A stretch of 64,000 nt of DNA from an uncultured delta proteobacterium (GTDB lineage: Bacteria; Myxococcota_A; Polyangia; Palsa-1104). The stretch is taken from positions 160,001 through 224,000 of the forward strand of contig CAWAWS010000014.1 of assembly GCA_963785725.1 (NCBI GenBank), read 5' to 3'. The translations under genes were made by a program, and so were the position numbers. Below, one piece after another: positions 15,762 to 38,479 of this stretch (position 1 is its first letter; each line of letters starts with the position of its first letter). The notes below the pieces were generated by a model, which was given only the letters and a program-made list of their open reading frames with translations, searched no databases and was not told the DNA's origin.

Positions 15762-15773
15762 GGGTTCTCCTCG

Positions 15774-17911: not shown

Positions 17912-17915
<4 letters not shown>
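17298..17915 (+). CDS. Stand-alone BY-kinase-like (CpsD/Wze) protein with degenerate Walker A
   Basis: KIVGLLPASGRVGVT (Walker A without Lys), YVDANVRWP (A'), VLVD (B), DAVVVVARGGLTR, LGVLI. Confidence 0.7.
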
Positions 17916-19005
<1,090 letters not shown>

Positions 19006-19012
<7 letters not shown>

Positions 19013-19069
19013 ACGCGCGCTGACTTGTAGTAAACGCGCGCTGACTTGTAGTAAACGCGCGTTTACTTG
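19006..19069. terminator. 21-bp tandem repeat ending in a palindrome, between convergent stop codons
   Basis: AGTAAACGCGCGCTGACTTGT x2, then AGTAAACGCGCGTTTACT (self-complementary). Confidence 0.65.
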
Positions 19070-21522: not shown

Positions 21523-22101
21523 CTACGGAACGAACAGCGAATCTCCGGCGATGAGCGGCAGATCTTCTTCGGGATGCAGGCCCGACGCGACGCGCTCGTA
21601 GTCGATGGGCACGCGACGCACGCCGTGACCGTCGTTGCGCACGATGACGAGCTTGTGCGGGTCGGCGAACTTGTTGAGCCCGCCGCCCATCGCCACCGCT
21701 TCGGACACGGTCACGTAATACTTGGCCGTGAAGATGCCGCCATGCTCGACGTTGCCGCCGACGGTAAAGCGGTAGCTGTTGACCTCGGTGACGGCGACGC
21801 TGACGACCGGCCCTTCTTTGACGTAGTTCGTCAGCTTGGCCGTGATTTCCTTCTGCAGCTCCGACGGGGTGCGGCCCGCGGCTTGAATGTCGCCGATGAG
21901 CGGCATGGTGATCGTGCCGTCCGGCCGCACGCGCGCGTCGGTCGACATCTCCGGATTCTTCCAGACGTTGATGCGCAGCTGGTCGGAAGCGCCGATCACG
22001 AACTCGCGCTTTCGCGGGTCCGGCTCTTTGCTATAATCATAAACCGACGACGCACAGCCCATCGTCGACAACAGCATGCACATCACAGCGCTTCGGAGCA
22101 T
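21523..22101 (-). CDS. wza: Short OPX polysaccharide export lipoprotein
   Basis: Lipobox MGC; IGASDQLRINVW, VRPDGTITMPLIGDIQAAG; SLBB repeat; no C-terminal helical barrel segment. Confidence 0.9.
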   Translation of the reverse strand: MLRSAVMCMLLSTMGCASSVYDYSKEPDPRKREFVIGASDQLRINVWKNPEMSTDARVRPDGTITMPLIGDIQAAGRTPSELQKEITAKLTNYVKEGPVVSVAVTEVNSYRFTVGGNVEHGGIFTAKYYVTVSEAVAMGGGLNKFADPHKLVIVRNDGHGVRRVPIDYERVASGLHPEEDLPLIAGDSLFVP

Positions 22102-22152
22102 CGACGTTCGCGTCAAGGCGGTCTCCCCGGCGCATCATAACCGGACCGCCTG

Positions 22153-23535
22153 ATGTTCGCCATCCCCGGAATCGTCCTCTTATTGGCGTTTCTGTATACG
22201 CGTCCGCAAGAGTTCATCCCCGAGCTGCGCGCGATCCCGCTTTTGTACGTGTTTTTCGCGCTCGCCATCTTCGGTTGGGCCGTCGATCTCCGCCTGCGCC
22301 GCAGCCGCCCGGTGAGCGTGCCGCAGCTGCCGTGGGTGCTCGGCTTTTACGGCTGGGCCCTGTTCACGGCCGCCATTCGCAAGCCGGAGATGGCCTTGCC
22401 GCTCGCCATCGATCTCGGCATTCCCATCGTCGTCTTCGTGATGCTGGCGACGATGGTGCAGAGCTTTCGCGCCTTCTCCGTCGTCGCCGTCTCGATCTTG
22501 GCGCTCAGCATCTTCTTGGCCGGCATCGGCGTGCATCAAGGTCTGGCGCCATGGGGCTGCCATCGCATCGACGCGTCGTCGACGGATCAAGTGGGCATTT
22601 ACGACGGCCGCAGCTGCAGCGGCGTCAGCGAAAAAGAGTGCGAAGAGGGCGACGTCGAGCCCGGCGCCGACTACGCGTGCGAGAAAATAGGCCTCTTCGG
22701 CACGTCGTCGATCGCCGGCGGTCGCGTCCGTTATCGCGGCGCGCTCAACGATCCCAACGAGCTGGCGCTCGTCATCTCCGTCGGGCTGCCGTTCGCGTTC
22801 GCGCTATTCGAGCGTAAACGCAATCTATGGCGCTTCTTGTTGGCGTTCGGCGGCCTGGCGCTGGTCGCCACCTGCGTCGTCTTCACGCAGTCGCGCGGCG
22901 GCCAATTGGTGTTATTGGCCGTATTGGCCACATATTTCGTCAAACAGTTCGGCTTCAAAGGCTTGATATACGGCGGCATCATCGGCGCGCCGGTCCTGTT
23001 GTTGGGCGGCCGCCAAGGCGAATCCGCCGATTCATCGTCGATCGAGCGCGTCGAATGCATGTACGCGGCGATTCAGATGTTCAAACAATATCCATTTCGC
23101 GGCGTCGGCTTAGGGCAAATTCTCGATTACCACACGCAGACCGCGCATAACTCGTATGCATTGGCGGCCGCCGAATTGGGTTTTCCCGGTATGGTACTTT
23201 GGACCGGCGTCCTCTATGTCACCATCAAGATCCCCTATCAGCTGCTACGCGACTTCGCGCATAAGCCGGAGACGGCCGTCGCGCGCGCCTGGGCGATGGC
23301 GATCTTGTCCGGCAGCCTCGGCATGGCCGTCGGCGTCTTCTTTCTCTCGTTCTGCTATCACCAGACGTTTTGGATTCAAATGGGAATGGCCGGCGCGCTC
23401 TATTCCGCCTGCAAAGCGCACGACCCCGATTGGGAAGTTCGCTTCGGTGCGCGCGATTGGCTATTACTCGTGGGCATCGACAGCGTCCTCGTCGTCGCCA
23501 TATTCCTTTATACCCGCGCCAAAGTGGGCGGCTGA
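22153..23535 (+). CDS. wzy: O-antigen ligase-like / Wzy polymerase
   Basis: Multi-TM; DPNELAL, TQSRGG, PFRGVGLG, AHNSY...ELGFPG. Confidence 0.8.
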   Translation: MFAIPGIVLLLAFLYTRPQEFIPELRAIPLLYVFFALAIFGWAVDLRLRRSRPVSVPQLPWVLGFYGWALFTAAIRKPEMALPLAIDLGIPIVVFVMLATMVQSFRAFSVVAVSILALSIFLAGIGVHQGLAPWGCHRIDASSTDQVGIYDGRSCSGVSEKECEEGDVEPGADYACEKIGLFGTSSIAGGRVRYRGALNDPNELALVISVGLPFAFALFERKRNLWRFLLAFGGLALVATCVVFTQSRGGQLVLLAVLATYFVKQFGFKGLIYGGIIGAPVLLLGGRQGESADSSSIERVECMYAAIQMFKQYPFRGVGLGQILDYHTQTAHNSYALAAAELGFPGMVLWTGVLYVTIKIPYQLLRDFAHKPETAVARAWAMAILSGSLGMAVGVFFLSFCYHQTFWIQMGMAGALYSACKAHDPDWEVRFGARDWLLLVGIDSVLVVAIFLYTRAKVGG

Positions 23536-23559: not shown

Positions 23560-24447
23560 ATGGATTGGCGCTTGAAAGCGACGCTACAGAATGTGTTTTC
23601 GCGCGTCCCCGGCGGCGAATCGCTCAATCATTTGTTCCAAAAGTACGTCACGCGCACGTTACCGATCGACGCGCGCCGGCTGACCGAGATCGTGCAGCGC
23701 GCCGGCCGCCACTTGCAGGCGCTGGCGCCGCACCGGCAAAAGCCGCTCGCCGACGCGGTCTTCTACGAGTTCGGCGCCGGCTGGGACTTGGCGAGCCCGC
23801 TCGGCTTTTGGAGCCACGGCGTCGAGAAGCAGTTGTTGGTCGATATTCGCGATCTGTTACGGCTCGACGTCCTGAATCATACGATCGCCCTGTTCGCGCA
23901 CGTCGATCTGCCGTTGCCGCGTCGTCCGGGCGCGCCGTTATTGGCGAAAGAATCGCTGCGCGCGACCTTCGGGATCGATTTCCGCGCGCCCTGCGACGCG
24001 CGCGCCACCGGGCTCGGCGACGGCGCCGTCGACGTCATCACGTCGTCCAATACCCTCGAGCACGTACCGCCCGACGATATTCGCGGCATCTTGCGCGAGT
24101 GCCGCCGCATCTTGGCCGCCGACGGCATGATGAGCATGCTCGTCGACTACCAAGATCATTACTCGTACTTCGATCGCACTATTACGCCCTATAATTTCCT
24201 GCGTTATTCCGAGCGTGATTGGCGCTTCTTCAACCCCTCGCTGCATTATCAAAATCGATTACGACATAGCGATTACGTGCGGCTCTTCGAAGAGTCGGGT
24301 TTCCGCATTCTCGACGTGCAGCCGTCACCGGTCGGCGACTCCGATCTGTCGGCGCTGCGCTCGGTGCCGCTGGCGACGCCGTTTTCCGCCTATCCGGCCC
24401 AAGATCTGGCCATCCGCGACGCACGCTTCGTGCTGACGAAAGGCTGA
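23560..24447 (+). CDS. Class I SAM-dependent methyltransferase
   Basis: YEFGAG motif I, DVITSSNTLEHVP, RILAADG, YQNRLR. Confidence 0.82.
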   Translation: MDWRLKATLQNVFSRVPGGESLNHLFQKYVTRTLPIDARRLTEIVQRAGRHLQALAPHRQKPLADAVFYEFGAGWDLASPLGFWSHGVEKQLLVDIRDLLRLDVLNHTIALFAHVDLPLPRRPGAPLLAKESLRATFGIDFRAPCDARATGLGDGAVDVITSSNTLEHVPPDDIRGILRECRRILAADGMMSMLVDYQDHYSYFDRTITPYNFLRYSERDWRFFNPSLHYQNRLRHSDYVRLFEESGFRILDVQPSPVGDSDLSALRSVPLATPFSAYPAQDLAIRDARFVLTKG

Positions 24448-24451: not shown

Positions 24452-25045
24452 ATGTTCGACTTCTCCCGCGAAGTGTTCATTTGCAAATGCTCCACGTCCG
24501 TCGATATCCATCAAATGGACGACGATCCGGAAGTGGCGCGCATGAAGTTCAGCCAGGGGCGCGAGTTCGATTTGGCGCGCCTGAGCGTGCAATATCACGA
24601 CGTCAATCATTTGCAGGAAATGCGCGACCGCTTGGCGCGCGGCGAATATTGGATGATCGGCGAGCTCGACGGCGAGATCGTCACCTATACCTGGCTGTTC
24701 GCCCGCGAATATTTCGAATATACCTATTTGCCCGGTTGCCGCTTCACGCTCGGCGACGACTCGGCTTACGGGTATGGCGCTTGGACGCCGAATCACTTGC
24801 GCGGCAAAGGATTACGGCGGCGCGCGTTTCTCGAGGAGCTCGATATCTTGCGGCGGTGGGGGAAACAGTGGGAGGCGAGCGTGTTCATCAAGCAGCAGAT
24901 CGAGGGCGCCAATCGTTCGTTGGCGAAAGTGGGGATCGAGATCGTCCCGCTGTGGCGCGTCGAATATGGCCGCGACAAGAAGCTGCACGCCGAGTCGCTC
25001 ACGCCCGACGAGAAATCGATTCGCCCGTTTTTCCCCGCGCCATGA
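24452..25045 (+). CDS. GNAT-family N-acyltransferase
   Basis: ELDGEIVTYTW and AWTPNHLRGKGL (RxxGxG-like motif A). Confidence 0.65.
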   Translation: MFDFSREVFICKCSTSVDIHQMDDDPEVARMKFSQGREFDLARLSVQYHDVNHLQEMRDRLARGEYWMIGELDGEIVTYTWLFAREYFEYTYLPGCRFTLGDDSAYGYGAWTPNHLRGKGLRRRAFLEELDILRRWGKQWEASVFIKQQIEGANRSLAKVGIEIVPLWRVEYGRDKKLHAESLTPDEKSIRPFFPAP

Positions 25046-27462
25046 ATCGCCTATCTCGGCAGTCGAATATCGTGGCGGCCTTCGTCGCCGCGACGCTGGC
25101 GCTCGGCTGTCGCGCGCAGCCGCCGCCCGGCTCGTCGCTGCCGCCGGCGCCGTCGACCGAGGCCCAAAGAGGCCATCCGCGCTTGTGGATCCGCGCCGAC
25201 GAATTGCCGAAACTGCGCGGCTGGGCGCGCGCCGACAATCCGACGTGGGCCGCGCTCGAGCAAGCGGCGACGCGCGCTCGTACGGTGTACGACAAAGGCA
25301 AAGTCCCGGCCGGTAGAGTCTGCACCGACGATAGCGGCGTCTATACGTGCGAAGGTTACGCCGAATTATTCGCGTTCTTGTCGCTGCTCGAGCCCGACGA
25401 AGCGCAGCGGCGCGCCGACGCCGGCCGCGCCGTCAAGCTGCTCATGGCCGTCGTAAACGAAGCGAAAAAGGGCGCGAAAGAGGGCGAATCGGTGCGCGAT
25501 CCGGCGTTCGCCGTGTCCGATCGCTCGCGCTGGAGCGGCGAAGCGTTCGCGCTCACCGCCGATTGGACTTACCCCTGGCTCACCGCCGAGCAAAAGCGCG
25601 ACGTGCGCGCCGTATTCCTGCGCTGGGCCGACGAGCTGACGCACGCCACGACGACGTCGCACAATCACCCCGAGCCGCTCGGCGTCTATGACGATCCGAA
25701 GCTGACACAAGATCGATTGAACGTTCGTTTCAGCGCCAATAATTATTTCACGGCGCATATGCGCAATATGGGAATGATGGCGCTGTCGTTCGACGCGCAA
25801 GACGATCCCGACGGAAAATTAGCCGCCTACCTCGGCAATGCGACCGGCGCGTGGCTGTATATGGTCGATGATCTATTGCGTACCGACGCCAAAGGCGGAT
25901 TACCGCCCGACGGTCTCGAATATGGCCCGCAAACGTTCGCTTATGTCGCCGAATTCTTACTCGCGTTACATAGCGCCGGCCGCGACGACGGCAAACGCGA
26001 GCCGCAAACACGCTTCGACGGCAATCCCTGGTGGAGCGACCTGATCCCGGCGTGGCTGCACTTGATGAGCCCGCGCACCGTCGAGCATCCGTGGATGGGC
26101 GCGCTGTCGCAGCCGGGGTGGTATGGCGAAGGCCAGAAGTATTGGGCCGCCGATCCGATCGATCTTTTTGCGCCGTTGGGTATTTGGGCGCGCGACACCG
26201 GCGATAGCAAACGCTACGACGCCGCGCGTTTCATCGTGCGCAACATGGCGCCGGGCGGCGCCGAGAAGTTCGACGAGCGTATCGCCAAAAACGACGATTT
26301 CCGGCAATCGATATTGTATTTCCTGTTATTCGATCCGGGCGCGCCGCCGGCCGCCGACCCGCGTCCGTCGCTGCCGAAAGCGCATTTCGCGCCCGGTTTG
26401 GGCCGGATTTACGCGCGCACGAGCTGGGACGGCGACGCCGCGACGTTCGATTACGGGCTGGGCTGGGTGGCCATCGATCATCAGCACGGCGACGGCAACG
26501 GCTTCGAATTCTATCGCCGCGGTGAATGGCTGACCAAAGAGCGCACCGGATATGGGCCCAATATCGCGTGCAGCGATTATCACGATACGCTGGCGGTCGA
26601 GAACGATAAGCCCTATCACGCCAAAGATCCGCACGACTATCGCACCATTCAATGGCAGCGCGGCTCGCAGTGGAGCGGCGATTTGAGCGACGGGCCGGGC
26701 AAATTGCTGGCGCATTCGATCGACGATAAATACGTTTATGCGTTGGGTGATGCGACGCAGCTCTACAATTCGAAGTACGAAGGTGTCGGCGATGTCGAGC
26801 GCGTCGTGCGTTCGATCGTCTGGCTGCCGTCCGATTATGTGGTCGTTTACGATCGCGCGGCGACGAAGAAGGACGGTCGCTTCAAGCGTTTCTGGCTGCA
26901 ATTGCCGGCGCCGGCGACGGTGAGCGGCAAGCGCGCGACGATGCGCACGGCCAAAGGGCAGCAGCTGTTCGTCACGACGTTGTTGCCCGCCGACGCGCAG
27001 CCGCAAGCGGAGCTGGCCGAGCCGCTGAAGGAGAACTCCGAGCCGGCCGAGCTCGATCCGATCGTCGCGCGCTTGCGCGTCGAATCGCGCGCCAAAGACG
27101 TGCGTTTCCTGCACGTTTTGCAGGGCGCCGACGCCAAAGCGGCCGCCGATGCCGTGGCGCTCGTCGACGCCGGCGGCGACTTCGTGGCCGCGGCGGTGCA
27201 CGCCAAGACGGCCGATTGCAAGTCGACCGCCGCTTGCGCCGGTCCCGTCGTCGTCGTCTTTCCGCGCGACGCCGGCGACGCGGCGGCGGTCGAGAAACTG
27301 GCGCTGGCGACGCCGCCGGGCACGCGCGCCGTGCTGTTCACCGGCCTCGTTCCCGGCGCTGAATACGCGGCCGCGCGGCAAGGCGACGGCCGCGTGCATA
27401 TCACCAAAGGTGGTGCGCAGCACGCCGACGACGGTGGCGCCTTGTGGGTCCCGCTGCCGTAA
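25042..27462 (+). CDS. Heparinase II/III-like polysaccharide lyase lipoprotein
   Basis: Lipobox LGC; HPRLW start; alpha/alpha region with EYG; ARTSW...HQHGDGNGFEFYRRGEWL motif. Confidence 0.72.
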   Translation: MNRLSRQSNIVAAFVAATLALGCRAQPPPGSSLPPAPSTEAQRGHPRLWIRADELPKLRGWARADNPTWAALEQAATRARTVYDKGKVPAGRVCTDDSGVYTCEGYAELFAFLSLLEPDEAQRRADAGRAVKLLMAVVNEAKKGAKEGESVRDPAFAVSDRSRWSGEAFALTADWTYPWLTAEQKRDVRAVFLRWADELTHATTTSHNHPEPLGVYDDPKLTQDRLNVRFSANNYFTAHMRNMGMMALSFDAQDDPDGKLAAYLGNATGAWLYMVDDLLRTDAKGGLPPDGLEYGPQTFAYVAEFLLALHSAGRDDGKREPQTRFDGNPWWSDLIPAWLHLMSPRTVEHPWMGALSQPGWYGEGQKYWAADPIDLFAPLGIWARDTGDSKRYDAARFIVRNMAPGGAEKFDERIAKNDDFRQSILYFLLFDPGAPPAADPRPSLPKAHFAPGLGRIYARTSWDGDAATFDYGLGWVAIDHQHGDGNGFEFYRRGEWLTKERTGYGPNIACSDYHDTLAVENDKPYHAKDPHDYRTIQWQRGSQWSGDLSDGPGKLLAHSIDDKYVYALGDATQLYNSKYEGVGDVERVVRSIVWLPSDYVVVYDRAATKKDGRFKRFWLQLPAPATVSGKRATMRTAKGQQLFVTTLLPADAQPQAELAEPLKENSEPAELDPIVARLRVESRAKDVRFLHVLQGADAKAAADAVALVDAGGDFVAAAVHAKTADCKSTAACAGPVVVVFPRDAGDAAAVEKLALATPPGTRAVLFTGLVPGAEYAAARQGDGRVHITKGGAQHADDGGALWVPLP

Positions 27463-27510
27463 GCGAGCGCGTATTCCGGGATTGGCGATTCGGCTTATAA
27501 TAGGGAGCCC

Positions 27511-28659
27511 ATGTCTACGAAGATCTTGTGCGTTGCCGGCGCGCGTCCCAACTTCATCAAGATCGCGCCGCTCATGCGCGTGCTCGGCGCCAATCCGCGC
27601 TTCGCCGCGCGGCTGATTCATACCGGACAGCACTATGACGCCAAGCTATCGAAGGTGTTTTTCGAAGACTTGAAGATACCAAAGCCCGATATCGAGCTGG
27701 AGATTGGCTCGGGGTCGCACGCACAGCAGACCGCGGAGATCATGAAGCGCTTCGAGAGCGTGTTGCAGACGGAGCAGCCGGAGGCGGTGCTCGTCGTCGG
27801 CGACGTCAATTCGACGATCGGCTGCGCCATCGTCACGGCGAAGTTCTTCTTGGACAAGCCGTTCAAGGCGAAGCTCGACGGTAAGATCGTCGAGCGGCGG
27901 CGACCGGTGATGATTCACGTCGAAGCCGGGCTGCGCTCCAATGACGACGACATGCCCGAAGAGATCAATCGCAAGCTGACTGACGCGATCTCGGATCTTT
28001 TGTTTGTCAGCGATCCGGCGGGTATGGAGAATCTAAAGCGCGAAGGCGTGCCCGATAGTCGCTACTTCTTTGTCGGGAACGTCATGATCGACACGCTCTT
28101 GGCGGCGCGCGAGCAGGCGATGCAGTCGCCGATTCTCGAGCAGATCAAAGTCGAGAAGAACGGCTATGTGCTGATCACGCTGCATCGACCGTCGAATGTC
28201 GATGATCCGGCGCAGTTGTCGGCGCTGTTGCGCACGATCGAGTCGGTGGCCGGCGATATGCCGCTCGTGTTTCCGGTGCATCCGCGCACGCGCCAGCGAC
28301 TGGCCGCGGCCAAGCTCGAGCCCGACGCCCGTCGCTGGCGACTCATCGAGCCGCTCGGCTATCTCGACTTCCTGAAGCTCACGGCGTCGGCGCGCATCGT
28401 GCTCACCGACTCCGGCGGCGTCCAGGAAGAGACGACGGTGCTCGGCGTTCCCTGCGTCACGTTGCGCGAAAACACCGAGCGGCCGGTGACGATCAGCGAA
28501 GGCACGAACTTCTTGGCCGGCACCGATCCGAAGTCGGTGGGCGAGCATTTCAAGAAGGCCATGGCGACGTCGACGAGCGGCCGCGTGCCGCGCTTTTGGG
28601 ACGGCAAGTCGGCCGAGCGTATCGACGCCATCTTGACCGGCATCTTCGCGGACGGTTGA
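27511..28659 (+). CDS. wecB: UDP-N-acetylglucosamine 2-epimerase (non-hydrolysing)
   Basis: GARPNFIK, HTGQHYD, HVEAGLRS, MPEEINR, LHRPSNVD, TDSGGVQEE. Confidence 0.95.
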   Translation: MSTKILCVAGARPNFIKIAPLMRVLGANPRFAARLIHTGQHYDAKLSKVFFEDLKIPKPDIELEIGSGSHAQQTAEIMKRFESVLQTEQPEAVLVVGDVNSTIGCAIVTAKFFLDKPFKAKLDGKIVERRRPVMIHVEAGLRSNDDDMPEEINRKLTDAISDLLFVSDPAGMENLKREGVPDSRYFFVGNVMIDTLLAAREQAMQSPILEQIKVEKNGYVLITLHRPSNVDDPAQLSALLRTIESVAGDMPLVFPVHPRTRQRLAAAKLEPDARRWRLIEPLGYLDFLKLTASARIVLTDSGGVQEETTVLGVPCVTLRENTERPVTISEGTNFLAGTDPKSVGEHFKKAMATSTSGRVPRFWDGKSAERIDAILTGIFADG

Positions 28660-28730
28660 GCGGTCGAGCGACTGAGCGTCGGCGACAGAGCCAAGCGACA
28701 CAAATGAGCGACTGTGAAGAGACATAAACG

Positions 28731-29783
28731 GTGAAGACGCGCGTCTATATCACCGTCGACGTCGAATGCGCCGAGGAGCGCGTCATTCGCGGTCAGCTGT
28801 GGCCGCCGCTCGGCTATGACCTGCGCGTGTGGGGCCGTTTCGCCAACCAAAAGGACGAGCTCGGCGTGCCGCTCATCATGCGCGAGCTCGAGGCCGAAGG
28901 CTTGCGCGGCACCTTCTTCGTCGAGCCTTTGGGCGCGCGCTTCTTCGGTATCGACGGGTTGTCCGCCGTCTGTCGCTCGATGCGCGCGCGTGGCCACGAC
29001 GTGCAACTGCACGCGCATCCGGTGCAGCAGCGGCCCGACTTTCGCTCCAAAGGCGGCGCCGCCCCGCCCGACGATCTGCACGCTTACTCCGTCGCCGAGC
29101 AGGCCGCGCTGCTGCAATCGGGGCTCGATATTCTCGTGGAAGCGGGCGTGCCGCGCGCCGAGTTGCGCGCCTTTCGCGCCGGCAACTTCGGCGCCGACGA
29201 GCGGACGTGGGACGCGATGGCGCGCGTCGGCCTGACGCTCAGCTCCAACCTGAACCCCAGTTATACCAAGCGCAATTGCCGCATTCCCTGGCGCGACAAT
29301 GGGCGCTTATTCGACACCGCCATAAGCAATGATAAACGCGTCTTCGAGCTGCCCGTCTCCAACTTCAGCGACGGTCACGGCGGCTTTCGCCACCTGCAGA
29401 TCATGGCCGTTTCGCTGACCGAAATGAAAGATTACCTGCGCCAGGCGCGTACGCTCGGTATCCACGAAGTCGTGCTGTTTACGCATTCTTTCGAGCTCTA
29501 TTATATCGACGACTTGGCGCGTAAACAGGCGAGCGTTAGCTATATCAATGTCGCTCGTCTGCGCGGGTTATGTCGCTTCCTGAAGGAACACAGCGACGAA
29601 TTCGAGGTCGATACGATGGGCGCCTTGGCGAAACGGCTCGCCGACGGCAGCGAAACGGCGACACCGGCGACCCCCAGCCCGTTGCCGCGCATGCGCCGCA
29701 TTCATCGTTACGGTCGTATGATCGAGCAGCTGTTCAAGCGCGTCGAATCGGGTTTCAAAGTCCAATCCCATTACTCGGAATGA
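28731..29783 (+). CDS. Polysaccharide deacetylase family protein
   Basis: ITVDVE, GTFFV, HDVQLHAHP, AFRAG, LFTHSFE. Confidence 0.8.
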   Translation: MKTRVYITVDVECAEERVIRGQLWPPLGYDLRVWGRFANQKDELGVPLIMRELEAEGLRGTFFVEPLGARFFGIDGLSAVCRSMRARGHDVQLHAHPVQQRPDFRSKGGAAPPDDLHAYSVAEQAALLQSGLDILVEAGVPRAELRAFRAGNFGADERTWDAMARVGLTLSSNLNPSYTKRNCRIPWRDNGRLFDTAISNDKRVFELPVSNFSDGHGGFRHLQIMAVSLTEMKDYLRQARTLGIHEVVLFTHSFELYYIDDLARKQASVSYINVARLRGLCRFLKEHSDEFEVDTMGALAKRLADGSETATPATPSPLPRMRRIHRYGRMIEQLFKRVESGFKVQSHYSE

Positions 29784-30940
29784 ATATGCTGAGCGACGCC
29801 AATATCATCTGCTTCGCCAAGGACTGGAGCGAAGATCCCACGAGTAACAACCACGTCATGCGGCTCTTGGCGCAGGACAACGAGGTCTTGTGGCTCAACT
29901 CGATCGCGACGCGCACGCCGAAATTGTCGAGCGGCAGCGATATGGCGAAGATTCGTCGCAAGCTCAAGAGCTTCGCCGACGGGCCGCAGCGCGTCGCCGA
30001 GCATTTGTCGGTCTTCACGCCGCTGGTCTTGCCGTTTCCTCATTCGCGGGCCGCGGTCACGCTCAATCAGCAGATCTTGCGCGCGACGACGGGCTATTTC
30101 CGGCGTCGCTTGGGAATGGGCGACTTCCAATTGTGGAGCTTCATTCCCACGGCCGTCGAATACTTCGGCAAATTGGGCGAGTCGTTTCGCGTTTATTACT
30201 GCACCGACGAATGGTCGCAGTTTTCGTATGTCGACGGCGCGCGCGTCACGGCGATGGAAGAAGAGCTGTGCCGCAAGTGCGATATCGTCTTTACGACCTC
30301 GCGCACGCTGCTGGAGAAGAAGCGGCCGTGGAATCGCGAGACGCACCTGGCTTCGCACGGCGTCGATTGGAAGCATTTCGCCAAAGCGCTGGCGCCGGAG
30401 ACGGTCGTTCCGTCGGAGATCGCGCAGCTCAAGCATCCGGTGCTGGGCTTTTTCGGGCTCGTGCAAGATTGGATCGATATCGACTTAATCGGCTGGCTGG
30501 CGCGACAAAGACCCGATTGGACGATCGTCATGATCGGCAAAGTGGCCGTCGATCATTCGCATTTGCGAGATATTCCCAATATCAAATGGCTCGGCCGTAA
30601 GCCTTATGAAGAGCTGCCCGCGTACTGCAAAGGATTCGATTTGGGACTGATTCCATTTCGCATCAACGAGCTCACGCGTAACGTCAATCCGATTAAATTG
30701 CGCGAATATCTCAGCGCGGGATTGCCGGTGGTTTCGACGCATTTACCGGAGTGCGCGCAATATCCCGAGTGGTGCACGGTGGCGGACACGCGCGAGCAGT
30801 TCTTGAGCGCCTGCGACGCGGCGCTGGCGGCGGATTCGCCCGACGCGCGGCGCGGTCGCAGCGAGCTCATGCGCGCCGAATCGTGGGAGCATAAAGTGGC
30901 GGAGCTGGGGAATCATATTCTGCGCGTCCAGCGCGGGTGA
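29780..30940 (+). CDS. Glycosyltransferase (GT4/TuaH-like)
   Basis: YYCTDEW, SHGVD, LGRKPYEELP, NPIKLREYLSAGLPVVST. Confidence 0.9.
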   Translation: MNMLSDANIICFAKDWSEDPTSNNHVMRLLAQDNEVLWLNSIATRTPKLSSGSDMAKIRRKLKSFADGPQRVAEHLSVFTPLVLPFPHSRAAVTLNQQILRATTGYFRRRLGMGDFQLWSFIPTAVEYFGKLGESFRVYYCTDEWSQFSYVDGARVTAMEEELCRKCDIVFTTSRTLLEKKRPWNRETHLASHGVDWKHFAKALAPETVVPSEIAQLKHPVLGFFGLVQDWIDIDLIGWLARQRPDWTIVMIGKVAVDHSHLRDIPNIKWLGRKPYEELPAYCKGFDLGLIPFRINELTRNVNPIKLREYLSAGLPVVSTHLPECAQYPEWCTVADTREQFLSACDAALAADSPDARRGRSELMRAESWEHKVAELGNHILRVQRG

Positions 30941-30953
30941 CCTTCGGCACTCG

Positions 30954-31549
30954 ATGTCCGACATAGCGGCGGCCTTTACGAGACATTCGGCGCGCCGCGG
31001 CCACGCCTGAAACCGCTGTCTTTCCCCGATCGCCCGGCGATTCACGTCTGGCATCATTACGCGCCTATCGTCGGTTCGGGCTGGTTTCGCGATCGCTTTT
31101 TATGTCTGTTCGCCGGCAAGCTACAGTCGCTCAACGCCTGTCTCGACGCGTGGCCCTTCTTGGTGCCAAAGCGCGCCGAGCGGCTCATTGTCGGCCGCAA
31201 CGCGCACGGCGCCATCGCCTTCGTCGACGATTTCGCGACGGCGGCGCCGCCGCTCTATGTCGTCGATCCGCTCAACGTCGATCTGCTCGGCGAGGGCGAT
31301 CTCAATCTGTTCACGTTCATCGATCAATATCTGCCCGAGAATCGCCTTCCCGCTTTCACCGACGATGAGCTCTATCGTCAGTCGCGCGCCAACGGCGTCG
31401 AGCTCGGCGATGACGAGATCTTGGCGATCGATGTGCCGCTGACGCTCGGCGGAAAAGCGGAGCTCGACAACTTTCACGTCGAGAACATCATCGAGCATTA
31501 CAAGGCGACGGGGCCGATTTACGCCAAGGGCTTCAAGAAGAAGAAGTGA
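30954..31549 (+). CDS. GAD-like/DUF1851 (Tdi1-type) immunity protein (1-bp deletion near 30975)
   Basis: Adding one T to GCCTTTACG gives MSDIAAAFYETFGAP...GSGWFRDRFL...WPFL...VGRNAHG...PLTLGGKAELDN, the pattern of this family. Confidence 0.6.
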
Positions 31550-31614
31550 TCGCGGCCGCATATTCGCGATATCAAAACCTTACTGTCGCGCGTCGATTGG
31601 AAACGAATAAGGCC

Positions 31615-31643
31615 TTGACTTCGAATGGCCGAGCTCGTACATA
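31615..31643 (+). promoter_or_regulatory. Candidate promoter of the tuf leader
   Basis: TTGACT-17 nt-TACATA (weak -10). Confidence 0.35.
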
Positions 31644-31662
31644 ACTGGATAGGTAATATTCC

Positions 31663-31810
31663 CATGACGACCCTCGCGACGATTCTCGGCGGCCACACGA
31701 TGCGCGTTCTTGCGCTCGTGGCCGCCTCGTCGCGTTCCGGCTCGCGGTCATCGTCGCACGCCAACGGCGCGTCATCGCTGGAGGATTCGGGCTCGCCCGG
31801 CTCTTTGTAA
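31663..31810 (+). CDS. Putative 48-aa Ser-rich leader peptide (uORF)
   Basis: AGGT before ATG; MTTLATILGGHTMRVLALVAASSRSGSRSSSHANGASSLEDSGSPGSL; its stop overlaps the antiterminator region. Confidence 0.6.
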
Positions 31811-31868
31811 GGATTCCCGCGAGGGAACTTTGAAAGAGGCCGGGCCCGCGAGGTCCCGGCCTTTTTTA
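31796..31868 (+). terminator. Intrinsic terminator with competing antiterminator (attenuator)
   Basis: Stem AGGCCGGGCCC-GCGA-GGTCCCGGCCT plus T-run; CCCGGCTCTTT (31796-31806) is complementary to AAAGAGGCCGGG (31833-31844) with one bulge. Confidence 0.8.
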
Positions 31869-32037
31869 TTTCCGGCTCCGAAAATCAACGATTTCCAACG
31901 GCGCGAAATGCATTCGCGCCGAATGGGATAGGTGCGTCTGCGTCCGCGATATGGCGGTCGATATCGATAACGCGATTCAAAACGAGCCGGCCCGGCTCGA
32001 TTGACGCGGAGCGAATCCGCATACGAGGAGAACGAAG

Positions 32038-33216
32038 ATGGGCAAGGTGCACCTGAATGTCGGAACCATCGGCCACGTCGACCACGGCAAGACCACGCTC
32101 ACCGCCGCGCTGACCAAAGTCATGGCGGCGCGTCACGGCGGTCGCGGGCTCGCGCTTCGACGAGATCGACCGCGCGCCCGAAGAGCGTGCGCGCGGCATC
32201 ACGATCAACCTTGCTCACGTCGAGTACGAGTCGGCGACGCGGCACTACGCGCACGTCGATTGCCCGGGGCACGCCGATTACGTGAAGAACATGATCACCG
32301 GCGCGTCGCAGATGGACGGCGCGATTCTGCTCGTCGACGGCTCGCAGGGCGCGCAGCATCAGACGCGCGAGCACGTGCTTGTTGGCCAGGCAGGTCGGCG
32401 TGCAGCGGCTGGTCGTGTTCGTGAACAAGGTCGACGTGGCCGATCCCGAGCTGCTCGATCTGGTCGTGCTCGAGGTGCAGGAGCTGCTGGCGGCGCAGGG
32501 TTACGTCGACGTCCCGATCGTGCGCGGCTCGGCGCTGCGGGCGCTGCAGGCCGTCGACGCCGGGCGCGCGAGCGACCCGTCGTGCGACTGCATCGTGCAG
32601 CTGGTCGAGGCGCTCGATCGCCATCTGCCCGATCCCGAGCGCGACTTCGCGGCGCCGTTCTTGATGCCGATCGAGGACGTCGTGACCATCCCGGGTCGTG
32701 GCACGGTCGTGACCGGCCGCGTGCAGCGCGGCGTGCTCGCCGTCGGTGCGCCGATCGAAGTGGTCGGGCTCGCCGACGGCGAGCGCCCGCGCACGGTCGT
32801 GGTGAGCGGCATTCAGTCGTTTCACCGCGACTGTCCGGCAGGCGCGCGCCGGCGACAGCGTCGGCCTGCTCTTGCGCGGCGTCGGTCGCGACGAGGTCGT
32901 GCGTGGTCAGGTCGTGACGCAGCCCGGGGTCGTCAAGCAGTTCGCGCATGGCGAGGCCGAGCTCTACGTGCTCGGGGCCAACGAAGGCGGGCGGCACACG
33001 CCGTTCGGCAGCGGTTACACGCCGCAGTTCTTCTTCGGCGCCACCGACGTCCCGGGCGCGCTCGACGTCGGCGAGGGCGCGCTCGTCCATCCGGGCGATC
33101 GCGCGCACGTGCGGTTCGCGCTGCGGCGGCCGGTCGGCATCGAGCCCGGCGTGCGCTTCGCGCTGCGTGAAGGCGGCCGCACGATCGGCGCCGGCATCAT
33201 CACCAAAGTCGGCTGA
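32038..33216 (+). CDS. tuf: Divergent elongation factor Tu paralogue (EF-Tu3-like); three +1 indels near 32155, 32380, 32832
   Basis: [70 protein letters not shown]. Confidence 0.92.
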
Positions 33217-33255
33217 ATGGAACCAAGGACAGGAGCATCGCGTCCTGCCACGTCA

Positions 33256-33287
33256 AGGCCCGCGCTCGTAAAGGCGGGCCTCCTTTG
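33256..33287. terminator. Hairpin terminator between convergent tuf and GT2 genes
   Basis: AGGCCCGC-N10-GCGGGCCT followed by CCTTTGT. Confidence 0.6.
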
Positions 33288-33295
33288 TCTGTCTG

Positions 33296-34428
33296 TTACC
33301 AGGTGATCTTCTGGCTACCGCGCACGAAGCGCCATAACCCGACCAACGCTGCGAAGTTCAGCACTAAGAACGTGCGATAGACGACGCCGGCGCGACCCGC
33401 GCGCGTCCCGGCAGCGGCCATGAGCAGCAGAAACAGCTGACCCAACGCGAAGGCGCGCATGAGCCACACGCCGTCGAGCGCGAACGCGCCCATCGACCAC
33501 GGCTGCGCCGCCCACGCCGAGGCGACGAAGAACACGAGCAACAGCCACGGGCAGACCAAACGCATCACTTTATGCGACAGCAGCTCGAACCACGACGGAT
33601 TGACGAACGGCACGAGCAAGCGCCGGCATGCGCGCGAACAGCTGATAGTTGCCGGCCAGCGTGCGCACTTTGCGGCCGAACTCGCGCTCGTCGCCGAAGG
33701 CTTCGTCGAGCGCCACGGCCTCCTCGCAAAACAGCAGTCGCCGTCGCTGCAGGCGCAGCTGCATCGGGATCCACATGTCGTCGAGGATGACGTCGGTCGG
33801 CACGTGCGGTAAGTCGCTCTTGCGAATGACGTAGATCGGGCCGGTCACACCCAACATGCTGCGAAAGCGCGCTTCCGACTTACGAATCCAGTTCTCGTAC
33901 TTCCAATAGACGCCCGCGCCGGCGCTGCTCGGCAGCGTCAGGTTTCCGGAGACACAAGCGACATTCGGATCGGCGAGGCGCGTGACCATCGCCCTCAGTG
34001 CGGTCGGCGCCAAAGGCTGTCGAATGTCAGTCAGCAGTAGGACTTCGCCTTTGGCTTCGGCGCGCATGAGGTTCAGCGCCGTCGGCTTGCCGCTGCGCGC
34101 CGGCGCGCGAATGAGCCGCACGCGCCCGTCGCTGCGCGCGACATAGTCGCTCACGATCGCTTCGCTCTCGTCCGTCGATCCATCGGACAGGATCAAGATC
34201 TCCAGCTTGTCGGCCGGATAGTCGAGCGCCAATAGACTGTCGAGCTTGGGAGCGACATAGCGGGCGGCGTTGAACACCGGAATACAGACGGTTACGGTTG
34301 GTGACCAGCGCTCGTCCGGCTGCGTGCGCAGCGGCGACAGTCGCGCCAACAGGGCGACGACGATCGGATAAGCGACATAAGTATAAATCAGGAGACTGAA
34401 GGCGATCAGCGCGATCGCGGATCGCCAC
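33296..34428 (-). CDS. Membrane-anchored glycosyltransferase family 2 (indels near 34420 and 33620)
   Basis: YTYVAYP, SDGSTD, GKPTALN, TDIRQ, YWKYE, ILDD, RKVRTLAGNYQL, SHKVMRL. Confidence 0.88.
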
Positions 34429-34431
34429 GGC

Positions 34432-35139
34432 TTAGCGCGGCGCCTTGACGAAGCGCGCCGGCACACCCATGGCGAGCGCGCCTTCGGGCACGTCATTGGT
34501 GACCACGCTGCCGGACGCGACGACGGCGCCGCGCCCGATGGTAACGCCTTTCATGACCTGCACGCCGCGCCCGAGCCAGACATAGTCGGACAAGGTCGTG
34601 GGCGCGATCTCCTCGACGCGCATGAGCTCGTCGCGCTCGCGCCGATCGGGATCCGACGGGTGACTGTCGGAGTCCGAGATGACACAACGCGCGGCGCAAC
34701 CGACATGACTGCCGATCTTGATGCGCTGATTGACGGAGAAGATGATGTCGCTCGAGAAATAGCAGTCGTCGCCGATGATCAGCTCGGGCTCGTCGACGAA
34801 GCGGCCGCTATCGACCTTGAAGTAGTTGAAGACACAATCGTCGCCGATCGTGATCTTCGTATGGCCGGTGATATAGGGCAGCGCATGAAAGCGCACGCGC
34901 TCGCCGAGCGAATGAATGCGCGCCCGCACCATCGGCTCGTAGAGCAGCTTGCCGGCGACGAGCTCGCGCCCGCCTTCGTAAGCGTCGTGCGCATAATAGA
35001 GCGTCTTATAGAACGCTTTGGTTATGTCAGTCTGCGGAACTTTCCAGCGCTCGAGCCAGCGATAGACATCATGCGCCGCTTTGGCGGCGGGATTGTCTTG
35101 TCGCTTGACCGACAGAACCAGCTTGTCGACGAGATTCAC
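34432..35139 (-). CDS. Left-handed beta-helix acyltransferase
   Basis: Hexapeptide repeats (ITIGDDC, IKIGSHV), VWLG, GVTIGRGAVVASGSVVT, GVPAR. Confidence 0.9.
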   Translation of the reverse strand: MNLVDKLVLSVKRQDNPAAKAAHDVYRWLERWKVPQTDITKAFYKTLYYAHDAYEGGRELVAGKLLYEPMVRARIHSLGERVRFHALPYITGHTKITIGDDCVFNYFKVDSGRFVDEPELIIGDDCYFSSDIIFSVNQRIKIGSHVGCAARCVISDSDSHPSDPDRRERDELMRVEEIAPTTLSDYVWLGRGVQVMKGVTIGRGAVVASGSVVTNDVPEGALAMGVPARFVKAPR

Positions 35140-35154
35140 GGCCGGTGACCGACT

Positions 35155-36340
35155 TTAGGCCCAGACGTCGCCGCGCAGCGACTCGCGGCCAGCGTGCTTT
35201 GTCGAACCCATGCTGCGTAAACAGCGCCAGCACTAGGCGTTCGAGGCCCCAGGCCGCGCAGCCCGTCGACACCGGATTGCCGTCGCTGCCACCGATGTCG
35301 AACGTCTTGCCGAAGAAGTTCTCGTGCAGGTTCGCCGACGCGCAGGCGATGGTGCGCGCCGCGCCGTCCGCTCCCGGCTCGACGTTCAAGCGCATCTCGA
35401 ACTTCAAGTCGTTACGCACCTGCCAATAGGTCTTCGTGGCGTAAGCGGCGCTGAAGAACGGATCATTGGCGGTCTCGAAGACACAATCGAGGTCCCACTC
35501 TTTGACCTGTTGCAGCTGCGCTTCCATGCCCTTTTGTCTGTTCGTGGTGACAAAGGATTCGGTGCCGACGAAGATGATCTCGCGCATCGTGAAGTCCCAC
35601 GCGCGATCGAGACCGACGATGTTCTTCGACTCGTAGCGGAAGCAGCGGCCGACGGCGGTGACGCAGCGCCCTTCGGTCGTCATCTTCGTGTTCTCCATCG
35701 CCTGATAGCAATGGTAACAAACGGCCGGATTCAAGCAGACTTTGGGCGTCTCGAACGCCTTCCAATCGGGCACGTCCAAGTGCGTGCCGTGATCGTTGAC
35801 GCGGCGAAACTCGTCGATTTTGTCGTAATCCTCGACGAGGTGCACGACCATCGACACCGTGTGCGGGAAATACTTGAAGTAGTTGCAGCGCGCCAACACC
35901 TCCGACGGCATCAGCGCCGGATAGTTCTCGTCGACGGCGCCGAAGTCTTTGATACCCAATGTGCGGCACTGACTGTCGATGGCGCGCATGCACGCCAAAG
36001 CGGGACCGGCCAAGCCGACTTGACCGTGGCCTAATTCGAGCACCCAGCGCCGTTTCTTCAGCTCGCCATAGACGTCGTGTCCGTAAGCGCCTTTGTCGCT
36101 TCGCTTGTTCTCGGCGAAGATCTTCTTAGGCAACTTGCGAAAGCGCGAGACCATGGCGTCGACATAGCGCTCGACCTTGTCTTTGGCCTCGGGATCTTTG
36201 TCGTCGACCATGTCGACGTCGATGGCGTCACGCGCGGCATTGACGCGCACGCCGCGCACCGACGGACTGACATAGACCGACTGCTTCTCCAGGTCGGCGG
36301 CCAGATCTTCGTCGACCGCTTTCGGCAGCTGAATGTGCAT
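35155..36340 (-). CDS. Amino acid--[acyl-carrier-protein] ligase (class II SerRS homologue); probable indel near 35185
   Basis: YFKYFPH, PAVCYHCY, CFRYE (motif 2), DFTMREIIFVG, ANDPFF, SANLHENFFG, TGCAAWGLER (motif 3); Cys/Glu/Cys zinc triad; no tRNA-binding coiled coil; directly follows an ACP gene. Confidence 0.88.
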
Positions 36341-36345
36341 TGGGC

Positions 36346-36591
36346 TTAGCCCCCTTGGAGCTGTCCGATGAGCTCCGTCATCTTGCGCACGGTACGGGCC
36401 GACGAATAGGCCTCGTCGGGAACGCTGACGCCGAACTCGTCCTCGAGCGCGAACAAGAGGTCGAGCGCGGCCGTCGATTCCACGCCCAGCTCGCGGAAGA
36501 TGTCGGCGTCGAGCGGGAGCGCGCCGTCCTCTTTCCGCTTGCTGACGCGGCGAATGATGTCGCAAATGCGCGTTTCGATGTTGTCAGTCAT
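36346..36591 (-). CDS. Stand-alone acyl/aminoacyl carrier protein
   Basis: 81 aa acidic protein; LGVESTAALDLLFALEDEFGV with the phosphopantetheine Ser. Confidence 0.9.
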   Translation of the reverse strand: MTDNIETRICDIIRRVSKRKEDGALPLDADIFRELGVESTAALDLLFALEDEFGVSVPDEAYSSARTVRKMTELIGQLQGG

Positions 36592-36609: not shown

Positions 36610-37737
36610 TCAGTGGCGGCGTTGAATGCGTTCGTAAACGGCGAAGTAGTCGTCGACCATGCGCTGCGCGGAGTAGCGAGCGAGCGCGCGCCGACGACCC
36701 TCCTCGCCCCATGATACGCCGAGCGCCCGAGCGCTCGCAAGCTGCCACAATCGGCTACCCAACGCGGCCGCGTCGCCGCGCGGGACGAGCGCGCCGGTCG
36801 CCGCCGCCGCGCCGCCACTGCCGTCGACGACGACGGCCGGAATGCCGCCCACCGCCGTCGACACGACCGGCAGCGACGCCGCCATCGCCTCGACGATGAC
36901 CAAAGGTAAGCCCTCGGAGTCGCTGGAGAGCGCGAACACATCGAGCGCGTGCAGGAGCCGCGGCACGTCGCCGCGCGCGCCGAGCGGCAACACCCAACGC
37001 GCGCGCTCGCCCAGCGTCGCCAGCGCCGCATCCAGCGCCGGCTTTTCCGGGCCGTCGCCGACGATGACGAGCCGCAGCCGCTCCGACAAATGCGGCGCCA
37101 GCGCCTGCACCAGTAGCGGCTGATTCTTCTCGCGCACGAGCCGCCCGACGGTCCCGACGACGAACGCGTCCGCCGGCAAGCCCAGCTCCTCGCGCACCGT
37201 CGCCCGCAGCGTCGCCGACGGCGAAAATCGCGAGAGATCGATCCCGTTCTCGATCGTCGTCAGCTTGCGCAAGGCGACGTCGCCGTTGGCGCGCGCCTGC
37301 GCCGCCGTCGTCGCCGACACGGCCACGAACGCGTCACAACACAGCGCCGCCGCCCGCGCCAATAGTCGCCGCCGCCCCCGCATCTCGTTCGCGCCATGCT
37401 TCGTATGCACGCAGCGCGCGCCCGCCAGTCGCGCGGCCGGCGCGCCATAGATCAGCGGCGGCGGATTGTGCGTATGCACAATTTCGATCCGGCGCCGCCG
37501 CAGCGCCAGCGCCAGCTTGCCCACGAGCGTCACGTCGATCCCGCCCGCGCGCTTGCCGAGGCGCACGATGGGAATGCCGTGCGCCGCATATTCCGCCGCC
37601 ATCGGCCCGCCCGCCGGCTCCTCCAGTGACACGACGATGACCTCGGCGCCGCGCGCGCGCTGCCCCGCCGCCAGGTCGAGCGCCACTCGCTCGCCACCGC
37701 CGACCCCGAACGACCCGATCACATGCGCAATGCGCAT
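36610..37737 (-). CDS. Glycosyltransferase family 4
   Basis: GGGE, HTH, ENGID, VGRLVREKN, EGLPLVIVEAMA (EX7E). Confidence 0.92.
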   Translation of the reverse strand: MRIAHVIGSFGVGGGERVALDLAAGQRARGAEVIVVSLEEPAGGPMAAEYAAHGIPIVRLGKRAGGIDVTLVGKLALALRRRRIEIVHTHNPPPLIYGAPAARLAGARCVHTKHGANEMRGRRRLLARAAALCCDAFVAVSATTAAQARANGDVALRKLTTIENGIDLSRFSPSATLRATVREELGLPADAFVVGTVGRLVREKNQPLLVQALAPHLSERLRLVIVGDGPEKPALDAALATLGERARWVLPLGARGDVPRLLHALDVFALSSDSEGLPLVIVEAMAASLPVVSTAVGGIPAVVVDGSGGAAAATGALVPRGDAAALGSRLWQLASARALGVSWGEEGRRRALARYSAQRMVDDYFAVYERIQRRH

Positions 37738-37750: not shown

Positions 37751-38479
37751 CTACCGACCCAAACCCTTCAGCATGACCAGCGGCGTCTTGGCGATGATGT
37801 CCAGCTCCGTCGACAAGAACGTCGAGAAGCGCTCCAAATTCGCCGAGTAGGCCAGGTCGAACAGCATCTTCATGCGCATGTCGTCGGCCTCCGAATCGTC
37901 GGCGCCTTCGAGCTGAAATGGGTTGGTCAGCTGCTCCTTGAACTCGCTGATGGGGCTGCCGTTCGGCGCGCGCCCCGAATAGCCGAGCGAGATCTGCGCC
38001 AGCCCCGTGATCCCCGGCTTGACGTTGCGCATGCGCTCCTCGAAGAACGGGATCGCCAGCGCCAGATTCGACAGCAGCTCCGGTCGCTCCGGCCGCGGTC
38101 CGACCAGGCTCATGTCGCCGCGCAAGACGTTCCAGAACTGCGGCAGCTCATCCAGCCGCGTCTTGCGCAAGAAGCGACCCACGCGCGTGACCCGCGGATC
38201 GCCCTCTTTCGCGAGCACGGCGCCGGTATTTCTCTCCGCGTCCGGCCGCATCGTGCGGAACTTCAGCATGTGAAACTCGCGGAAGCGGAAGCCGGTCGTG
38301 CCGTTGCCGTCGGCGCCGAGCAGCTCACCGGCGCGCTTTTGCCGATAGAACAGCGGCCCCGGCGAGTCGAAATAAATGGCCGCGCCGATCAGCGGATAGA
38401 GCGGCACCGTCACCGCCAATCCCACGGCGCCCGCCGCCAGGTCCAGCAATCGCTTGGCGATTCTCACCGACGACGTCAC
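37751..38479 (-). CDS. Priming sugar-phosphate transferase (short PHPT)
   Basis: KRLLD, KFRTM, DPRVTRVGRFLRKTRLDELPQFWNVLRGDMSLVGPRPE, KPGITGLAQ. Confidence 0.93.
   Translation of the reverse strand: MTSSVRIAKRLLDLAAGAVGLAVTVPLYPLIGAAIYFDSPGPLFYRQKRAGELLGADGNGTTGFRFREFHMLKFRTMRPDAERNTGAVLAKEGDPRVTRVGRFLRKTRLDELPQFWNVLRGDMSLVGPRPERPELLSNLALAIPFFEERMRNVKPGITGLAQISLGYSGRAPNGSPISEFKEQLTNPFQLEGADDSEADDMRMKMLFDLAYSANLERFSTFLSTELDIIAKTPLVMLKGLGR

Follow-up and report, generated by a model that had tools for sequence, protein, structure and literature searches.

Gene content of the locus

We have analysed a 64,000-nucleotide stretch of DNA (the window; positions 160,001 to 224,000 of contig CAWAWS010000014.1, assembly GCA_963785725.1) from an uncultured delta proteobacterium of the Polyangia, in which a gene for a paralogue of seryl-tRNA synthetase (SerRS) lies beside a carrier protein gene within a cluster of polysaccharide biosynthesis genes. 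A first-pass annotation of this DNA had proposed that the SerRS-like protein is an amino acid:[carrier protein] ligase (aa:CP ligase) and that the amino acid, probably glycine, is handed from the carrier to a deacetylated amino sugar of a surface polysaccharide, either by a GNAT-family protein or by an acyltransferase of the left-handed β-helix (LbH) type. The window belongs to contig C14 of an 8.9-Mb genome (G000); throughout, G numbers denote the genomes compared, L numbers the loci compared and C numbers the contigs of the window's own genome. The genes on which the argument turns are as follows.

37751..38479, minus strand: priming phosphoglycosyl transferase (PF02397)
36610..37737, minus strand: GT4 glycosyltransferase (domain and NCBIfam scans)
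36346..36591, minus strand: dedicated acyl carrier protein (ACP) of 81 aa, apparent module core (PF00550, E 5e-11)
35155..36340, minus strand: predicted long-form aa:CP ligase, methanogen-type SerRS paralogue (PDB sequence and fold searches, homologues, contigs of relatives; below the NCBIfam cut-off)
34432..35139, minus strand: LbH (hexapeptide) acyltransferase of the maltose/galactoside/polysialate O-acetyltransferase type, candidate aminoacyl transferase (domain scan, alignment, nearest solved relatives)
33296..34428, minus strand: GT2 glycosyltransferase, in pieces in the assembly (Pfam, contigs of relatives)
24452..25045, plus strand: GNAT-like protein with a CoA-type R-x-x-G-x loop, accessory, candidate for an N-acetylating step (Atlas features 0.96, alignment, loop tally)

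The shared minus-strand orientation of the first six genes had been described correctly, as had the position of the ACP gene directly ahead of the ligase gene, whose ATG at 36340 lies 5 bases past the ACP stop codon. Ser39 of the ACP, the predicted phosphopantetheine site, is invariant, and the genome holds two genes of the phosphopantetheinyl transferase family. As assembled, the ligase frame runs on to 35069; an alternative frame yields the C-terminus of the homologues and stops at 35155, and base 35185 in the tail of the gene, extra in the assembly, is absent from contigs of three soil runs. The end at 35155 that had been assigned earlier is therefore correct, and the protein is 394 aa long in close relatives. 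The GT2 gene carries extra bases at 34422/3 and 33618 that are likewise absent from contigs of close relatives, so that both genes can be read as intact in the population. Soil metagenomes contain DNA close to the window, and the named homologues of the ligase come from Polyangia and Kofleriaceae. No RNA datasets were listed among the holders of window DNA, and a promoter scan of the window was uninformative (two sites against 1.2 expected).

Relationship of the ligase to known enzymes

The best PDB sequence match of the ligase was the Gly:CP ligase of Bradyrhizobium (E 1e-26, about 27% identity), followed by the SerRS of M. kandleri, and the same Bradyrhizobium enzyme ranked first when the predicted model (pLDDT 90) was searched with Foldseek. 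With VIA-align it tied with methanogen SerRS (Z 31, root-mean-square deviation (rmsd) 2.3 over 284 residues). Homology of the class II core to methanogen-type SerRS was evident from PDB, NCBIfam, Foldseek and VIA-align comparisons alike. Residues C208, E254 and C361, which would form a Cys-Glu-Cys zinc site, are present, and together with the motif GCAAWG, which contains Ala363, they align with the C/E/C residues and TGCVAFG of the Bradyrhizobium enzyme; over an alignment of 63 rows C208 and C361 are invariant and E254 is conserved in at least 90%. The segment following DPFF has the length and the LKFE end found in the Bradyrhizobium enzyme, unlike that of M. kandleri SerRS.

The family assignment is less straightforward. 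Against NF005479, the family of classical aa:CP ligases, the protein scores 154.8 bits, below the cut-off of 357, whereas a short-form ligase from the same genus scores 402.7, and in a quick 58-row tree the short classical ligases group apart, in a clade of their own. It falls equally below the cut-offs of the methanogen-type SerRS families (110 against 611 bits and 101 against 490 bits), and those enzymes are about 500 aa long as against 394 aa for close relatives of the ligase. Besides a basic linker it keeps about 70 extra N-terminal residues, which fold in the predicted model as a small α/β domain. By sequence this domain returned only ubiquitin-repeat noise; by structure, searched alone, it matched common α/β folds (best Z 7.5), and methanogen SerRS was not among the matches listed, although the two may be kin. 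Alignment of the full model placed the domain on M. barkeri SerRS from residue 102 onward at rmsd 9, and it comprises only about 70 residues whereas the SerRS catalytic core starts near residue 166. Since the ligase lies outside NF005479 and a separate, canonical SerRS is encoded in the genome, we call it a long-form relative that probably works like an aa:CP ligase. The best matches, the adjacent ACP and the SerRS elsewhere thus bear out the earlier view of a carrier protein ligase rather than a tRNA synthetase, and we consider it very probable that the ligase loads this ACP. One protein that appeared to join ligase and LbH enzyme (P0079, 638 aa) reads as frameshift read-through and was rejected as a true fusion; it was the only such case found among longer proteins, 8000 candidates having been scored, which is weak evidence.

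Neighbourhood of the ligase in related genomes

Ligase neighbourhoods were compared in the best 80 of 205 confirmed relatives, more than half of them from related Chloroflexota, using labels transferred by BLAST from Pfam scans of the window and of the relatives' loci. An ACP gene was present in 77 of the 80 loci and adjoined the ligase in 73, as expected of a carrier dedicated to it. Glycan-synthesis labels occurred in 64 loci, glycan or MBOAT labels in 69, and a candidate transferase in 69; the partners included LbH (13 loci), MBOAT (7), AAC(3)-type (45) and NeuB (34) proteins, and another GNAT stood beside the ligase in 45. Among the loci of at least 20 kb, 42 of 46 carried a glycan or MBOAT label, compared with 15 of 401 tiles of the window's own genome, a control that is biased because the label references came from the ligase loci themselves. 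The order priming transferase, GT4, ACP, ligase is conserved across families. The suggested link between the ligase and ACP pair and surface glycan genes is therefore a recurrent one, and we think it likely that a surface glycan is the final destination of the product.

Short-form ligases, too, have Wzc, GT2 and deacetylase genes as neighbours in two genomes of the window's genus. A short classical cassette in that genus (L121, positions 2806-15634, genome G236) consists of acyl-CoA dehydrogenase, ligase, DUF1839, AcpS, ACP and GH2 genes within a different polysaccharide locus, flanked by genes like those at 43105-45189 of the window (squalene synthase-like, EamA). Long ligases show other arrangements as well. 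In L016, L017, L021 (the cultured Labilithrix luteola), L023, L025, L028 and L032, ligase and ACP stand beside an MBOAT gene, mostly with an SGNH/DUF1574-like gene, in a Dlt- or AlgIJ-like layout. Anaerolineae loci (among them L061, positions 9763-13793, and L065) have the order ACP, ligase, GNAT, AAC(3), DUF4910 within NeuB/cytidylyltransferase clusters, often with sulfotransferases, and an acidobacterial locus (L058, positions 7112-16100) has two tandem ligase paralogues accompanied by genes for an ACP, an acyl-CoA dehydrogenase, and radical SAM, SGNH and AMP-binding proteins.

Association of the LbH enzyme with alternative candidate loaders of amino acids

The nearest matches of the LbH enzyme are O-acetyltransferases, NeuO among them; it shares their D-G/S-H-P histidine motif, and its His160 is invariant. 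Its distribution was followed in 401 genomes of the window genome's class. At a threshold of E≤1e-70 an orthologue was found in 12; a further three of the 15 matching the LbH profile at E≤1e-40 (G128, G127 and G263) were dropped. Six of the 12 hold the long ligase and six an amino acid adenylation enzyme, none holding both and none neither. The long ligase was not found in these latter six genomes, five of which were searched again at E 0.001. The adenylation enzymes share at least 50% identity and are confined to those six genomes of the 401, with four further genomes matching at only 35-38%; no orthologue was found in the window's own genome. Both of those scanned passed the cut-off of TIGR01733 (amino acid adenylation). 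Read as motifs in GrsA numbering, the pocket residues of the adenylation enzymes share a D, an I and an I-Y pair with the glycine-activating module 2 of LgrA; the likeness is a hint only.

The adenylation gene adjoins the ACP and LbH genes in G101, G164, G307 and G046 and lies elsewhere in G350 and G067, the last of which retains the order priming transferase, GT4, ACP, LbH, Wzy without a ligase. The ACPs beside LbH form one subfamily whichever loader is present (34-56% identity). On a tree of 50 LbH rows, paralogues and fragments included, the adenylation label needs three changes, G350 and G067 nesting among ligase-linked rows. In five Kofleriaceae-type genomes with the ligase the LbH gene was on the ligase contig in every case, and it stays inside the glycan cluster even at 10-14 kb from the ligase. 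Metagenomic data agree: 25 of 33 loci with an LbH orthologue had ACP and/or ligase directly upstream, and none of 33 distant LbH loci had an ACP or a ligase. Seventeen had the order ACP, ligase, LbH and three ligase, LbH with the contig cut; five had ACP, LbH (one with an adenylation gene), four the separated Kofleriaceae layout and four little upstream DNA. Some of these loci are near-duplicates and many are short, and one fragment of 49 residues was excluded. L003, L004, L005 and L218 carry two LbH genes in tandem behind the ligase gene, and the second copies group in a clade of their own.

Because each of the 12 genomes with the LbH orthologue holds either the ligase or the adenylation enzyme, the ACP and LbH pair would be a core that needs an activated amino acid; in these comparisons the pair looks like the core of the module and the ligase like its exchangeable loader. 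The earlier annotation had left the choice of transferase between GNAT and LbH. Where one loader replaces the other, the LbH gene remains with that of the ACP while the GNAT follows the ligase only, and we accordingly lean towards the LbH enzyme, at slightly better than an even chance.

The protein at 24452-25045 had no Pfam, NCBIfam or PDB sequence match, and its assignment as a GNAT, made earlier without qualification, now stands on language-model features, which place it nearest to Atlas clusters of GNATs (score 0.96), and on its R-x-x-G-x loop. Perhaps it is an accessory that caps an amino group.

Proposed pathway and alternatives

Our current working hypothesis is that the ligase loads an amino acid on the ACP and that the LbH enzyme passes it to a sugar of the Wzx/Wzy polymer, with the GNAT as an accessory; for this complete scheme, drawn from sequence comparisons, we see the chances as even. 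The ligase would activate a small amino acid (Gly or Ala, possibly Ser) with ATP at its zinc site and, by homology, would load it onto the phosphopantetheine of the adjacent ACP. The LbH enzyme, judging from its co-distribution and subfamily, would then move the aminoacyl group from the ACP to a sugar, probably as an ester. The acceptor would be a cytoplasmic precursor of the polysaccharide, either the repeat unit on undecaprenyl pyrophosphate or a nucleotide sugar, and the polymer, secreted or capsular, would be exported via a short OPX (outer-membrane polysaccharide export) protein. The GNAT would be an accessory that uses acetyl-CoA, perhaps to cap the amino group; this is the weakest step of the scheme. 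Aminoacylation of a deacetylated amino sugar, as first suggested, needs qualifying: since the LbH enzyme resembles O-acyltransferases, we rate the likelihood of an ester to a sugar hydroxyl no lower than that of an amide, and both deacetylase-like families of the window are missing from most orthologous loci.

Several observations weigh against this scheme. The solved relatives of the LbH enzyme are annotated as acetyltransferases, and we found no paper on an LbH enzyme using aminoacyl-ACP. The sampled genomes are kin, so that the co-distribution counts are not independent and hypergeometric values for them, which would be overstated, are set aside, and G067 sits on a long branch in the LbH tree. 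The ACP and LbH genes lie outside recognised glycan loci in G350 (a complete genome), G101 and G164. The genomes of L014 and L006, fragmentary metagenome-assembled genomes, have a close ligase and ACP with no LbH orthologue, GNAT or nearby glycan label, and the long-ligase clades of L124, L126 and L133 have, with the references used here, no ACP match or glycan label within 8 kb.

The tracking of the ligase by the GNAT is compatible with a different division of labour, in which a deacetylated amino sugar receives the amino acid through the GNAT, the donor being the charged ACP or aminoacyl-CoA produced by the ligase, and the LbH enzyme is an ordinary O-acetyltransferase. The GNAT occurs in seven of the 401 genomes, six of them with the long ligase, and in eight of ten additional genomes with the ligase, and it adjoins LbH in 13 of the 33 metagenomic loci, quite apart from the other GNATs beside the ligase noted above. 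Carrier-dependent GNATs exist, SbzI being described in PMC11685415, and according to PMC5370406 aa:CP ligases can aminoacylate free CoA, which makes a transferase role in ligase strains all the more conceivable. However, the GNAT turned up in none of the six genomes that combine ACP and LbH with the adenylation enzyme, whereas G008 has it, without ligase or LbH, in a Wzx/Wzy locus carrying a CapK-like adenylase. Its loop is of the CoA type, whereas PMC11685415 reports an altered loop in carrier-dependent GNATs, and the pairing of ACP with LbH would be left unexplained. We therefore regard this route as unlikely.

We attach a similarly low probability to a module that aminoacylates a lipid, a glycolipid or a small molecule and is merely often parked in a glycan locus. 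LpxA and LpxD, which draw on acyl-ACP to build lipid A, belong to the LbH enzymes, several loci are flanked by epimerase and phospholipid acyltransferase genes, the ACP and LbH pair stands by itself in G350, in G101 and G164 it lies together with the adenylation gene next to housekeeping genes, and the L006 and L014 loci point the same way. Against this stand the gene order kept across families and the retention of LbH in the cluster at a distance from the ligase, and such pathways are often split across the genome, as here with Wzc-like genes on C39. Far less probable than either is a role of the ligase in tRNA charging, as a second SerRS or as the source of aminoacyl-tRNA for a transferase. 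The structural tie to methanogen SerRS, the sub-threshold NF005479 score, the retained N-terminal domain and basic linker, and the many database copies named seryl-tRNA synthetase would favour it, but the canonical SerRS, the adjoining ACP in most loci, the replacement of the ligase by an adenylation enzyme in six genomes, the Bradyrhizobium-like segment after DPFF and the shortness of the N-terminal domain all speak against it.

Compared with the type represented by Bll0957 of Bradyrhizobium (PDB 3mey, 4h2s) and its Agrobacterium relative (NF005479), the ligase of the window shares the class II core, Cys-Glu-Cys residues, Ala two positions after the last zinc Cys (C+2), an adjacent carrier protein and a post-DPFF segment of the same length. 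It differs in its low identity and sub-threshold score, in the extra N-terminal α/β domain and in its partners, which are LbH and GNAT as opposed to the acyl-CoA dehydrogenase and DUF1839 of the short form. The Dlt system (DltA, DltC, DltB, DltX and DltD), as described in PMC13721041, likewise loads a small amino acid ATP-dependently on a dedicated carrier for a surface polymer. The Dlt-like logic that had been suggested is supported as logic: no component is shared, although the seven MBOAT-linked homologous loci, mostly with an SGNH-like gene, approach Dlt in layout. Domain scans found no DltA-type adenylase, MBOAT or DltD in the window locus; its loader would be a synthetase paralogue, its proposed transferase a cytoplasmic LbH enzyme and its target a Gram-negative Wzx/Wzy polymer. 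AlmEFG of Vibrio cholerae also provides a tRNA-independent glycyl-carrier route to a surface structure, with an ANL adenylase, a transferase of the lipid acyltransferase type and lipid A as its target. NeuO and the maltose and galactoside acetyltransferases, which use acetyl-CoA as donor, share with the window protein the C-terminal LbH region as well as the histidine motif. These enzymes are annotated as acetyltransferases, while the window subfamily travels with an ACP and an amino acid loader.

More generally, and tentatively, long-form aa:CP ligases may be general loaders for tRNA-independent aminoacylation of bacterial surface glycans. They would serve transferases of three or more unrelated types (LbH enzymes of myxobacterial Wzx/Wzy loci, MBOAT/SGNH proteins, and AAC(3)-type proteins of nonulosonate loci in Anaerolineae), and ANL adenylation enzymes could stand in for them; an LbH enzyme with an aminoacyl-carrier donor would give an O-aminoacylated, possibly N-acetyl-aminoacylated, exopolysaccharide. 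No precedent for such a donor was found in the literature searched, nor any paper linking aa:CP ligases or ACP-linked LbH enzymes to polysaccharides; most subscription papers (including Mocibob 2010) and the supplementary cluster tables lay beyond the search, and the link may be foreshadowed there. A 2022 review (PMC9437257) calls the function of aa:CP ligases in the cell unknown. The present locus offers a carrier for these ligases together with candidates for the transferase and the acceptor, and the exchange of loaders shows which partner to test first. If correct, the scheme would add a synthetase-derived route to the amino acid decoration of surface polymers, alongside Dlt and Alm, and a new type of donor for LbH enzymes. 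Ligase, ACP and LbH enzyme are small and without evident membrane segments, and the first steps can therefore be assayed without culturing the host.

Identity of the amino acid and the spore-coat polysaccharide

Glycine had been suggested from the Ala at C+2 of the ligase (Ala363), which corresponds to the glycine-selective type. That residue is present, but of the 79 motifs read among the 80 loci 62 have Ala there, 16 Gly and one Ser, and of 120 ligase proteins 90 have Ala and 24 Gly, the position being unread in six. Because Ala and Gly alternate among syntenic orthologues, with several changes inside the LbH-linked ligase clade, we reject the residue as proof of glycine, for which the support is weak; either the amino acid varies from strain to strain or this position does not settle it. 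For this strain we consider glycine and its alternatives evenly balanced. An unpublished genome (G331) is present in the C+2 tally, the ligase tree and the co-distribution table, and no claim depends on it.

The first-pass annotation had also drawn an analogy with the spore coat of M. xanthus. In bioRxiv 10.64898/2026.09.26.754727 and PMC12288465, glycine is described only as a possible part of its spore-coat polysaccharide, MASC, and the route by which it enters is not settled in the portions consulted. The MASC/exo system has in common with the window locus a Wzx/Wzy pathway with a short OPX protein. Elsewhere in G000, however, a second Wzx/Wzy-type locus (C4:46882-63489, L191) encodes Wza, a kinase, a priming transferase, two GNATs, a DegT aminotransferase, a deacetylase, Wzy_C and AsnB. 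We take its set of GNAT, aminotransferase, GNAT, deacetylase and Wzy genes to be the layout of the M. xanthus exo cluster. Since this exo-like set is on C4, apart from the window, the analogy is not directly applicable, and the window polymer is probably not the spore-coat polymer.

Remaining genes of the locus

The other genes assigned to the polysaccharide locus are listed below.

29780..30940, plus strand: GT4 glycosyltransferase, TuaH-like (Pfam and NCBIfam scans)
28731..29783, plus strand: deacetylase-like protein, weak assignment (PF01522 E 0.023, below cut-off; NodB-domain chain E 1.6)
27511..28659, plus strand: WecB UDP-GlcNAc 2-epimerase (TIGR00236, above cut-off)
25042..27462, plus strand: secreted heparinase/lyase-like protein (NF045571 E 3e-7, far below cut-off)
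23560..24447, plus strand: SAM methyltransferase (domain scan)
22153..23535, plus strand: Wzy_C-family polymerase/ligase (PF04932)
21523..22116, minus strand: short Wza/OPX export protein (NCBIfam and follow-up scan)
20012..21487, minus strand: Wzx flippase (PF13440)
19063..20004, minus strand: GT2 glycosyltransferase (domain scan)
17912..19012, plus strand: conserved protein, deacetylase-like only as a lead (no Pfam match; nearest named Atlas cluster 0.82)
15774..17240, minus strand: probable outer-membrane barrel partner of the short OPX protein, start approximate (position in related loci; no Pfam match)

The locus thus holds a priming transferase, glycosyltransferases, Wzx, Wzy and OPX, as expected of a Wzx/Wzy-dependent pathway; the co-polymerase (Wzc-like) and a kinase are encoded on C39, and their orthologues share the cluster in relatives. 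WecB would imply a sugar of the ManNAc type. The two proteins first described as deacetylase-like keep that description only weakly; orthologues of the one at 17912-19012 occur in L160 and L185. A counterpart of the probable barrel protein stands beside Wza or LbH in L151, L160, L186 and L187, and the lyase-like gene adjoins the GNAT gene also in Kofleriaceae-type genomes.

Between the two arms of the cluster lie a gene encoding a Tdi1_C immunity-type domain (31160-31549) and a divergent EF-Tu-like gene broken over several frames (32038-33216). A CapK/PaaK-like adenylase gene in the orthologous loci L160 (9089-10468) and L151 (9146-10516), not present in the window, could provide a second substituent. 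Genes for an anti-sigma factor, a STAS protein and a SpoIIE-type phosphatase at 38509-40718 diverge from the priming transferase gene; the STAS gene holds the same place in eight loci, the window included, and partner-switch control of the polymer is possible.

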